Source: Candidatus Bathyarchaeota archaeon (GTDB lineage Archaea > Thermoproteota > Bathyarchaeia > 40CM-2-53-6 > RBG-13-38-9). Taken from it: 64,000 bases of DNA. The stretch covers positions 288,001-352,000 of the forward strand of contig CAWECG010000003.1 in the NCBI GenBank assembly GCA_963807605.1. The letters run 5' to 3'. The notes under the pieces are model-generated. The model saw only the letters and a program-made list of their open reading frames with translations. It did no database searches and was not told the origin of the DNA. Below, in pieces: positions 37,838 to 57,665 of this stretch. How positions within the stretch are numbered: the first letter of the stretch is position 1; every line of letters starts with the position of its first letter. The position numbers and the translations under genes are program-made.

Positions 37838-37936
37838 TGGTGGGGTCGGTGGGATTTGAACCCACGACCTCGCGGGTTCTTGAAGCCTCGGGGCTACCCA
37901 AGCCGCGTAGCGTAGACCAGACTAGCCCACGACCCC
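37838..37936 (-). tRNA. tRNA-Pro(TGG) with a 20-nt canonical 37/38 intron (37877-37896); CCA encoded
   Basis: GGGGTCG/CGACCCC acceptor, CGCGG-CT-TGG-G[intron]C-CCGCG, GTGGG-TTCAAAT-CCCAC; central helix CTTG/CAAG. Confidence 0.93.
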
Positions 37937-55673: not shown

Positions 55674-56384
55674 CTATGGCAGAAGTCTATAGTAGACCCG
55701 TCTGTTGTTCCTACCTTTGTTTTCGGCTTTTAGAAACTCTATTTGGCCAACCTCTCTTAGGCTCCGGACGTGGGTTCCAGCGTCAGCCTGTTTATCGACA
55801 CCCTCTATCTCCACGATCCTTAACTCGGATACTTGCGGTGGCAAGGCTTCAGCCATCTTGATTACGCCTGGAATCTTGAGTGCTTCCTCGCGTGGAAGAG
55901 TGTAGGTTTTTACTGGCACATCCTTCTTGAAGAGTTGATTGGCCTTATCGATACATTCCATGAAGAGATCTCTATCAAAAATCTCCAAGTTGAAGTCAAA
56001 TCTAGACTTTTCCATGGTCAACTCGTTTCCAGTGACCAGTGCGTTTGTCTTATTGCAGAGAACTGCTATTAGAACATGGGCAGCCGTGTGGCTTCGCATC
56101 ATGCGGTATCTTCTGTTCCAATCAATCTGGCAGTGTAGTGTATCCCTAATTCTTAGTCCTTCTCGATCGACCTCATGAGAAATCTCGCCGAAGGACTTTC
56201 CGACATTCATGACATTGAAGACTTCACCTTTTCTTGTCATGTCTCCTACATCATTGAGTTGACCTCCGCCTTTAGGGTAGAATACTGTTTGGTCCAGAAC
56301 TACGTACTTGGAGTCGCTGATCTTGGTGATTGTTGCATCGCATTCTTTCAGGTACGCGTCATCCATGTAAAGCAGCTTGCTCAT
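55674..56384 (-). CDS. alaX: Alanyl-tRNA editing protein AlaX-M
   Basis: LYMDD, T.FYP.GGGQ..D, MRSHTAAH, ADAGTHV. Confidence 0.92.
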   Translation of the reverse strand: MSKLLYMDDAYLKECDATITKISDSKYVVLDQTVFYPKGGGQLNDVGDMTRKGEVFNVMNVGKSFGEISHEVDREGLRIRDTLHCQIDWNRRYRMMRSHTAAHVLIAVLCNKTNALVTGNELTMEKSRFDFNLEIFDRDLFMECIDKANQLFKKDVPVKTYTLPREEALKIPGVIKMAEALPPQVSELRIVEIEGVDKQADAGTHVRSLREVGQIEFLKAENKGRNNRRVYYRLLP

Positions 56385-56465
56385 CGTGTGTAACCTCAAG
56401 AGAACCTGTTGGATCTGTATTTTAAGTCAAGCTGTCAAACATCAGAAGTGCTTGAAGGTGAGTTA

Positions 56466-56566
56466 TGGAGCCCCGGCTGGGCTTCGATCCCAGGACTTAC
56501 GGCTTACGAAGCCGTCGCTCTGCCAGGCTGAGCTTTCCCGCCTGTACTATCTTCAGGAACCGGGGC
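56466..56566 (-). tRNA. tRNA-Thr(CGT) with a 24-nt intron at non-canonical position 8/9 (56535-56558); CCA encoded
   Basis: Spliced sequence: GCCCCGG TA GCTC AGCCTGGCA GAGC G ACGGC TT CGT AA GCCGT AAGTC CTGGG ATCGAAG CCCAG CCGGGGC T CCA; strict BHB at the junctions. Confidence 0.9.
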
Positions 56567-56672
56567 GGAAAAACCGGGGCACGACGATCTTGATTGGTGA
56601 TACTCATAAGGATTTTTAGGTGCGTTCGATTGGGATCCATTCAGTATTCCATGAACGTGGACGAAGATCCCC

Positions 56673-57665
56673 ATGTCAAGCAAACAAGGATTGGGCGAGA
56701 GAAGAATCATTGAGGTTATAGTTGATCTGCAAGACAAGATGCGCAATAACCCTCTGCCGTTCGGTGACGATGTCTCGGCTGTGCGAATAGGTGGAGGAAA
56801 ACTGGCCGTCTTAAAATGCGACATGCTAGTAGGGCTCACAGACGTTCCCAAGGGTATGAGCCTCCGGCAGGCCTCAAGGAAAGCTGTTGTCTCTAGCGTA
56901 AGCGACTTCGCCGCCAAAGGAGTTCAACCTCAGGCTCTGCTGGCCTCGCTGGGATTGCCCAGAAGATTTGGCTATGAAGATGTCAAAGAGATCGGTTTGG
57001 GACTCAACTCCGGCGCAAGAGAGTATAATACGTACGTCCTAGGCGGGGACACTAACGAATCTACAGATCTCACCGTAGATGTTTCCGCTTTCGGCATTTG
57101 CAGAGAGAAGGAACTTGTCCGTCGTGACACGGCAAAGCCAGGAGACGTGGTCGCAGTGACAGGCGACTTCGGACTGACTGCGCTGGGTCTGAGAGTGACT
57201 AAGGACCACTTGGAAGTTCCTCAGAAACTAAAGGAGGCAGCAGCTCACTCGATATACATGCCTAAGGCGAGACTGATTGAGGGTCTGGCACTTGCCGGGA
57301 ATCACCTCGTTTCCGCATCCATTGACTCGAGCGACGGCCTAGCTTGGAGTCTGTATGAACTTGCTAGATCAAGTAAAGTTGGATTCGAGATCGAGAACCT
57401 ACCGATTGATAGAAAAGTCGAAGAATTCGCTCTCAGAAATAACCTAAGTCCTTCGGATCTTGCTCTGTACGGTGGGGAAGAATACGAGTTGGTCGTAACC
57501 ATTAAACCCACAATGCTCGGAAAAGCCAAGAGGAAAGTCTCCGGACTAAAACCTATAGGGAGGGTCACGACGGAGCACGGTAAGATCAATCTGAAATCGG
57601 GCGGTGAGATCCATGAGATCGCGCCTAGAGGCTACGAGCACCTGGTGCACGGAGGATCTTCCTAG
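56673..57665 (+). CDS. thiL: Thiamine-monophosphate kinase
   Basis: GDDV, CDML, SDFAAKG, GGDTN, IDSSDGL, GGEEYEL, GYEH. Confidence 0.93.
   Translation: MSSKQGLGERRIIEVIVDLQDKMRNNPLPFGDDVSAVRIGGGKLAVLKCDMLVGLTDVPKGMSLRQASRKAVVSSVSDFAAKGVQPQALLASLGLPRRFGYEDVKEIGLGLNSGAREYNTYVLGGDTNESTDLTVDVSAFGICREKELVRRDTAKPGDVVAVTGDFGLTALGLRVTKDHLEVPQKLKEAAAHSIYMPKARLIEGLALAGNHLVSASIDSSDGLAWSLYELARSSKVGFEIENLPIDRKVEEFALRNNLSPSDLALYGGEEYELVVTIKPTMLGKAKRKVSGLKPIGRVTTEHGKINLKSGGEIHEIAPRGYEHLVHGGSS

Follow-up and report, generated by a model that had tools for sequence, protein, structure and literature searches.

Introduction

Where along a tRNA can an archaeal gene accept an intron, and what must the precursor do to lose it? 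[quoted passage not shown] The tRNA-Thr(CGT) gene of a Candidatus Bathyarchaeota archaeon resembles these in its 4-bp central helix, two 3-nt bulges and intron length of 24 nt, as well as in an encoded splicing endonuclease (EndA) of the (αβ)2 type, an intron-rich tRNA set and the failure of a standard caller to find it. Unlike the known non-canonical introns, its central helix borrows nt 3-6 of the acceptor stem, and a copy of those bases in the 5' leader appears to replace them.

The intron lies at position 8/9, which an earlier note on this DNA, made from the letters alone, did not count among the established sites. The position lists accessible to us, the main catalogues not among them, do not contain 8/9: they give 3/4, 20/21, 22/23, 25/26, 29/30, 30/31, 45/46, 53/54, 56/57, 59/60 'etc.'. 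The site is no one-off, however, as 88 genes for Thr-CGT, Thr-GGT and Asn-GTT carry an 8/9 intron across Bathyarchaeia. In the Asgard preprint, introns of the acceptor stem and of the junctions are lumped together as 'other', and the word leader does not occur (bioRxiv 10.64898/2026.10.13.758758). An acceptor-stem intron at 3/4 of Thermoproteales tRNAs is already published (Sugahara 2008, as relayed in PMC4090602), and, as far as that account goes, its removal likewise needs acceptor-stem bases. By its geometry, a 3/4 BHB would use leader bases within the central helix, whereas the Thr-CGT leader would pair with the opposite acceptor strand, outside the BHB. Given the spread of 8/9 introns in Bathyarchaeia and the precedent at 3/4, the position by itself is of modest novelty.

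Two further systems bear comparison. Split and permuted tRNAs (Nanoarchaeum, Caldivirga, Thermofilum; PMC3218864, PMC4033280) also have leaders or trailers selected to base-pair and thereby enable splicing; unlike these, Thr-CGT is encoded as one transcript in normal exon order, and its leader pairs with the mature tRNA and not with a second leader or a trailer. Caldiarchaeum tRNA-Thr(GGU) (PMC3293823) shares a copy of the 5' end upstream of an intron-bearing gene. That fragment measures 27 nt and is separated from its gene by 1.8 kb, with an insert bearing a recombinase in between, in contrast to a conserved copy of 7 nt at a distance of 7 nt, with no element between thiL and the Thr-CGT tRNA. 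In the literature that we covered, neither an 8/9 intron nor a leader copy replacing an acceptor strand was described, nor any tRNA intron of Bathyarchaeia; this is weak evidence of absence, because most subscription journals and GtRNAdb lay outside the search.

Results

The window, a stretch of 64,000 nt (contig CAWECG010000003.1 of assembly GCA_963807605.1, positions 288,001 to 352,000), holds on its minus strand the tRNA-Thr(CGT) gene, in which the earlier note had placed a 24-nt BHB intron at position 8/9 (56558-56535). All of its coordinates hold (Table 1). [quoted passage not shown] Both cuts fall after the second base of a 3-nt bulge and would leave a 77-nt tRNA. When the intron was shuffled 200,000 times, a complete central helix with at least 2 inner pairs arose in a fraction of 0.0011, and with at least 4 inner pairs in 0.00004. 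The exons are 24 nt apart behind a single putative promoter, so that the gene is not split, and their normal order sets it apart from permuted tRNAs. The intron belongs to the BHB class, though its site is unusual, and is very probably spliced.

Table 1. Features of the tRNA-Thr(CGT) locus, in coordinates of the window
Feature	Position	Strand	Remarks
Putative BRE and TATA box (A-run, then TTATGAG)	56603..56617	-	Kept in five aligned orthologs; author's own score; 29 nt before leader copy, 43 nt before G1
Putative leader splint, exact copy of tRNA nt 1-7	56574..56580	-	Complementary to 3' acceptor strand; at predicted transcription start
Spacer, 7 nt (5-9 nt in orthologs)	56567..56573	-	With nt 1-3 also able to form a hairpin competing for the intron 3' end
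Exon 1, tRNA nt 1-8	56559..56566	-	5' strand of the BHB central helix formed by nt 3-6 (56564-56561); U8 is the last base before the 5' cut
Intron 8/9, 24 nt	56535..56558	-	Inner helix 56557-56554 with 56544-56541; central-helix 3' strand 56540-56537; 3' bulge AA plus A9
Exon 2, nt 9 to encoded CCA, 69 nt	56466..56534	-	Anticodon CGT 56508-56506; 3' acceptor strand 56476-56470; discriminator T 56469
thiL (thiamine-phosphate kinase)	56673..57665	+	TIGR01379, E 1.6e-70; divergent neighbour, synteny marker; context
AlaXM-like alanyl-tRNA editing gene	55674..56399	-	NF040865, 299.9 bits against a cut-off of 300; downstream neighbour; context

The gene escapes a standard caller, as had been foreseen. 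ARAGORN makes no call on the unspliced locus and, once the intron is removed, reports tRNA-Thr(cgt) of 77 nt, which 4 substitutions and 1 gap separate from its near-identical intronless paralog Thr(TGT). The Rfam model RF00005 matches the locus over model positions 9-63 only. Within the window ARAGORN calls the Pro gene alone, and at a lowered threshold it produces hundreds of false calls; this tRNA-Pro(GGG) gene (37838-37936, minus strand) has an anticodon-loop intron of about 20 nt. A search for a second Thr-CGT gene, suggested as a check, found none in the genome, which is 94% complete. Most tRNA genes of this genome contain non-canonical introns.

What holds the 3' acceptor strand while nt 3-6 are engaged in the BHB? 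The gene had been recognised by the want of a 5' strand able to pair with the 3' acceptor strand. The gene is real, but an exact second copy of nt 1-8, at 56580-56573 and thus 14 nt upstream, lay beyond the coordinates considered and was overlooked. An exact 7-mer of this kind occurs by chance in 0.06% of random 35-nt windows of the genome. Since the copy follows a conserved TATA-like box by 29 nt, it probably opens the transcript; the first paired leader base comes a median of 30 nt (IQR 28-33) after the TATA start. A sigma-70 promoter scan, a model unsuited to archaea, found none. The leader can form 7/7 pairs with the 3' acceptor strand in 11 of 11 intron-bearing Thr-CGT orthologs, and the copy is absent from intronless Thr genes. 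Its next base is T in 4/11 Thr-CGT and 3/65 Asn genes, whereas T8 is retained in the proximal copy of nt 1-8 in every Thr-CGT ortholog but one (L011).

As a separate observation, the spacer and nt 1-3 can pair with the intron 3' end and nt 9-11, over about 6-11 bp by eye (56567-56573 in the window; orthologs L002-L009). Among Thr-CGT spacers, an AA bulge tends to go with a T-rich sequence and an AG bulge with a CTC-like one. This pairing may be a folding intermediate or a switch.

We calculated the energies of fixed structures and of ensembles with a folding model that covers RNA alone, excluding EndA binding and tertiary contacts. For Thr-CGT, forming the BHB costs 9.7 kcal/mol with no leader and gains 6.6 kcal/mol with the splint. 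The earlier note supposed that splicing leaves the 3' acceptor strand unpaired; it need not, since the leader offers a second nt 1-7 to hold that strand. Opening of the D stem, which had also been thought necessary, is dispensable too: the HBh' form with an intact D stem is favoured by about 5 kcal/mol over the full hBHBh' with its 2-bp outer helix, and (αβ)2 enzymes accept relaxed motifs such as HBh' (PMC3239211). In ensemble calculations the BHB is cheaper to form with the native leader than with none in 66/67 genes, and cheaper than with shuffled leaders in 57/67. The native leader of Thr-CGT does no better than shuffled ones (3.4 against 3.3). The leader raises the probability of the Thr-CGT central helix 600-fold, from 7e-6 to 0.4%, and the lowest-energy fold is the competing spacer-intron hairpin (-51.2 against -48.2 kcal/mol). 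After splicing, the splint stays on the 3' strand 97% of the time in the unconstrained model. Fixed cloverleaf folds are equal for both strands (-33.9 and -33.7 kcal/mol), which makes strand exchange plausible.

The 88 distinct genes with 8/9 introns comprise 11 Thr-CGT, 12 Thr-GGT and 65 Asn-GTT genes. Their introns range from 15 to 46 nt at a constant register. Inner pair 1 forms in 87/88 genes, and the central helix is complete in 10/11 Thr-CGT and 12/12 Thr-GGT genes. Compensatory pair types occur in the intron helix of Asn and Thr-GGT; inner pair 2 of Asn is AT in 34, CG in 12, GC in 10 and GT in 4. In-register pairs number 178/195 for Asn, against 35-109 in slid registers. Two kinds of deviation were seen among the Asn introns: a C5-A mismatch in the central helix of 27/65 (loci among L114-L117, L127, L129, L130, L179-L191, L220-L231), and in L123 an exon T5 that restores the pair while the leader copy keeps C.

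Thr-CGT carries the intron in families f1 and f6, and the orthologs seen from f5, f7 and f2 have none. Thr-GGT carries it in f5, f8 and f10; it is missing from Thr-GGT in the host genome. For Asn-GTT, every gene that the order yielded carries it, as do genes of some further families of Bathyarchaeia. The sole Asn-GTT gene found in the host genome bears it, so an intron of this kind must be spliceable. The gene thiL adjoins Thr-CGT in 23/30 loci, with the intron present or not. A leader-blind search for the Thr pattern across genomes returned 17 Bathyarchaeia matches and 27 chance matches in bacteria; every archaeal match was from Bathyarchaeia. Two members of the family agree in sequence with the named records LacPavin MAG_47_8 and RBG_13_38_9. 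Matches in a metagenome scan were mostly not tRNAs, and the six that passed the filter were five Asn genes with intron and copy and one false junction (L260). We looked for the Asn pattern of copy plus intron, with one acceptor sequence covered, in about 330 other genomes of Thermoproteota and obtained nothing but a probable chance match in G447.

Some lineages show patterns of their own. In f1, the family of the host genome, Thr-CGT has the 8/9 intron and Thr-GGT has none; in f5 the reverse holds. The Thr introns of both families end in CGGG plus two bases, a likeness in sequence that fits intron transfer between isoacceptors. Genus g5 (L010 in G005; L011 in G011, at C72:4257-4335 and upstream) has a G-A mismatch in the central helix. 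Exon 1 of L011 ends C7-G8 instead of G7-T8, so that G7 and U8 are lost, with the upstream copy intact; its intron has changes matching C7-G8 that lengthen a different hairpin. This may be a decaying gene, an assembly error or an altered splicing route.

Is the leader copy a peculiarity of Thr-CGT? Five of five genes found in the host genome (G000) with a first intron at 8/9 to 10/11 have a candidate splint, namely those for Thr, Asn, Lys, Tyr and Trp; of these, Tyr and Trp served as out-of-sample tests. Among 151 genes, the best duplex between leader and 3' end had a median of -18.7 kcal/mol with an 8/9 or 9/10 intron (n=67) and of -7.05 kcal/mol without one (n=84). At or below -15.5 kcal/mol, a cut-off picked after the data had been seen, were 56/67 of the former and 1/84 of the latter; for Thr genes alone the figures were 15/23 and 0/24. 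Some BLAST queries included leaders and may favour leader-bearing matches, but the Thr-pattern, Asn and Tyr sets are leader-blind. In leader-blind sets of relatives, the splint occurs in 42/43 intron-bearing and 0/20 intronless Asn genes, and in 17/17 intron-bearing and 0/10 intronless Tyr genes. The genomes are related and not independent. Because kinship inflates p-values, we relied upon paired contrasts within genera: for Tyr, G027 against G019 and G028 against G020, each pair consisting of an intron-bearing and an intronless member of one genus. In the Asn set, one family of another order holds both intron-bearing and intronless genera.

The 21 other tRNA genes of the host genome have duplexes of -2.1 to -11.6 kcal/mol, with the exception of Gln-CTG (G000:C4:321502), whose strong leader pairing of -15.6 kcal/mol occurs with no 8/9-10/11 intron. 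The same is true of Val-GAC L161 (14/15 intron; -17.0 kcal/mol). Introns at 15/16, which borrow D-stem bases, go with no splint, and the iMet leader duplex reaches -1.1 kcal/mol. On sequence comparison, the putative splint tracks introns at 8/9 to 10/11 whose central helix borrows acceptor bases.

Several other genes deserve mention. Introns near 15/16 and leaders lacking a splint are seen in iMet (G000:C3:1038863-1039001, L101; BHB checked) and in Ser, Leu and Gly genes of G000. The iMet gene has an exact copy of nt 1-7 at 67 nt upstream, apparently before its promoter. A tRNA-Asp (G000:C3, about 457,910-458,080), whose putative introns lie at 4/5 and 68/69, lacks a splint (-7.7 kcal/mol) and may need none because its own 3' acceptor strand is interrupted. 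In L078 (G050), a Lys-TTT gene with a 9/10 intron, a wobble copy of nt 1-7 sits a single base before G1; Lys-TTT of G000 lacks both intron and copy. In L133 (G008) and L135 (G012) the Lys-CTT 3' end is repeated close to the gene, in the manner of an att remnant; G000 has no such repeat.

The candidate splints differ in design. Those of Thr-CGT and Asn are full copies followed by a variable spacer. The Asn leader keeps 7/7 pairs in 63/65 genes from several orders, next to a spacer free in sequence and length (5-13 nt). In tRNA-Lys-CTT (G000:C3:610580; first intron 9/10) the leader complements the 3' end including CCA, with TGGCGGGC directly before G1 as the complement of nt 69-76. The leaders of tRNA-Tyr (G000:C2:53336; first intron 9/10; -24.4 kcal/mol) and tRNA-Trp (G000:C1:70173; first intron 10/11; -18.8 kcal/mol) also complement the 3' end with its CCA. 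Lys, Tyr, Trp and many Asn leaders are extended with TGG or GGT, which pairs with the discriminator and CCA. The tRNA-Asn(GTT) gene of the host (G000:C4:65450-65612; L098/L102), mis-called by ARAGORN as Ala, has three introns (8/9, 30/31, 37/38) and a CCA-covering splint; the Thr-CGT splint of this genome leaves CCA uncovered. Thr-GGT splints are weak, partial or with wobble pairs (5-6 of 7 pairs in 10/12). This variety of copies, CCA extensions and wobble pairs points to selection on pairing with the 3' end and not on being a duplicate. We also asked whether the last leader bases lengthen the outer helix. This fits Thr-GGT (G-1:C12, 10/12) and Asn (55/65), but we dropped it as a general feature, given 1/11 in Thr-CGT and GA ends in 6/20 intronless Asn leaders as well.

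The genome encodes two PF01974 EndA proteins, one α-like and one β-like, together with RtcB and RNase P RNA. EndA α (L051) has the loop GKPVGIPKPK; its best PDB match is 2cv8 (E 1e-38), and it aligns over its full length, loop included, with 2cv8 and 3p1z_B. EndA β (L052) lacks the catalytic motif and matches β-subunit models. Judged by these matches, the host enzyme is of the (αβ)2 type with the Crenarchaea-specific loop (Lys-Pro-Lys/Arg) and separate catalytic and structural subunits, predicted to form a tetramer.

Discussion

We consider it quite probable that this locus is a functional tRNA-Thr(CGT) gene with an 8/9 BHB intron and a 5' leader that acts as a splint in cis. With equal confidence we take the splint for an accessory element not described before; comparative support is strong, and the proposed function is drawn from it. 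How might such a precursor be processed? Transcription probably begins near the upstream copy of nt 1-7, to judge from the TATA spacing. The real nt 3-6 and the intron 3' end, whose pairing is visible in the sequence and conserved, would form the BHB. Left to itself, the 3' acceptor strand would pull nt 1-7 out of the 4-bp helix; conservation and energies suggest that it pairs with the leader copy instead. The (αβ)2 EndA would then cut each bulge behind its second base, and ligation would fall to RtcB; both enzymes are encoded, with activities assigned by family. Finally, the real nt 1-7 would displace the splint in a near-isoenergetic strand exchange, made irreversible by the RNase P cut at G1. 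This is the weakest step. Splints that cover CCA may also delay RNase P.

Could the upstream copy be a neutral relic of an intron that arrived by integration or recombination, with splicing achieved by breathing of the acceptor stem or by co-transcriptional cleavage? An intron gain that left a 5' tRNA fragment upstream is on record for Caldiarchaeum tRNA-Thr (PMC3293823), some spacers resemble the spliced continuation (the copy, then AGCTC or TGCTC; L008-L011), and a BHB transcribed ahead of the 3' strand could be cut first. We nevertheless regard this as unlikely: the copy sits at the predicted start site and keeps its 7/7 pairs in 63/65 Asn genes beside a freely varying spacer, and duplication of a 5' end would not yield Lys, Tyr, Trp and Asn leaders that complement the discriminator and CCA. 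At Thr-CGT itself no mobile element or integrase separates copy and gene, merely 7 nt, and the flanks are thiL and AlaXM; an old element, since fully deleted, may have been there. The copy may well have originated by duplication or integration, which is compatible with a splint and leaves its retention unexplained. Retention could also be ascribed to a quality-control lock, in which the leader mainly keeps RNase P, tRNase Z and the synthetase away from the 3' end and CCA for as long as the precursor is unspliced, and does not free the BHB. Many splints do cover the discriminator and CCA, and pairing of a leader with RCCA inhibits bacterial RNase P (PMC9433436). Introns at 15/16, in the D loop and at 37/38 would gain equally from such a lock, yet have no splint, and the Thr-CGT splint does not cover CCA. 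As the main function it is very unlikely, although locking and freeing the BHB are mutually compatible roles.

A different reading makes the upstream copy the true exon 1 and the intron 38 nt long (56572-56535). It predicts the identical 77-nt tRNA from a formally valid BHB (4 central, 3 inner and 2 outer pairs), the upstream copy is paired with the 3' strand in the lowest-energy fold, and in G011 damage has struck the proximal copy and spared the upstream one. Against this reading stands the base that follows the copy: with T there in just 4/11 Thr-CGT and 3/65 Asn genes, the upstream copy could not supply U8 and is not exon 1. It moreover tolerates wobble changes and truncation, the conserved inner helix begins right after the proximal copy, and the inner helix of the longer intron is weak (two G-U, one A-U). 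We rate this reading marginally below the lock; as a minor parallel route, in the host genome only, it could operate. That the locus is a pseudogene or misassembly whose insert stays in is scarcely credible. Thr-TGT might read ACG by wobble, and Thr-CGT could then be dispensable, but its tRNA body shows no damage and is conserved, BHB geometry is maintained in the insert across independent assemblies of two families, and the sole Asn gene found has the same arrangement.

Returning to the splint, we think it likely, with slightly less confidence than for Thr-CGT itself, that it represents a general device of archaeal pre-tRNAs. Encoded in cis at the start of the transcript, it would take the 3' acceptor strand, and often CCA too, enable splicing at 8/9 to 10/11 and force splicing to precede 5' maturation, in at least six Bathyarchaeia tRNA types, being gained and lost with the intron. 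Because such genes offer two candidate 5' strands, callers overlook essential tRNAs of Bathyarchaeia, Asn among them, or give them the wrong ends. The leaders of tRNA precursors are usually treated as disposable; that of Thr-CGT appears to be a required RNA chaperone. A splint would account for an intron at a site where the splice motif has to compete with the tRNA's strongest helix, and would give a rule for the positions able to accept introns in the course of archaeal intron gain. It also predicts an order of processing, EndA before RNase P.
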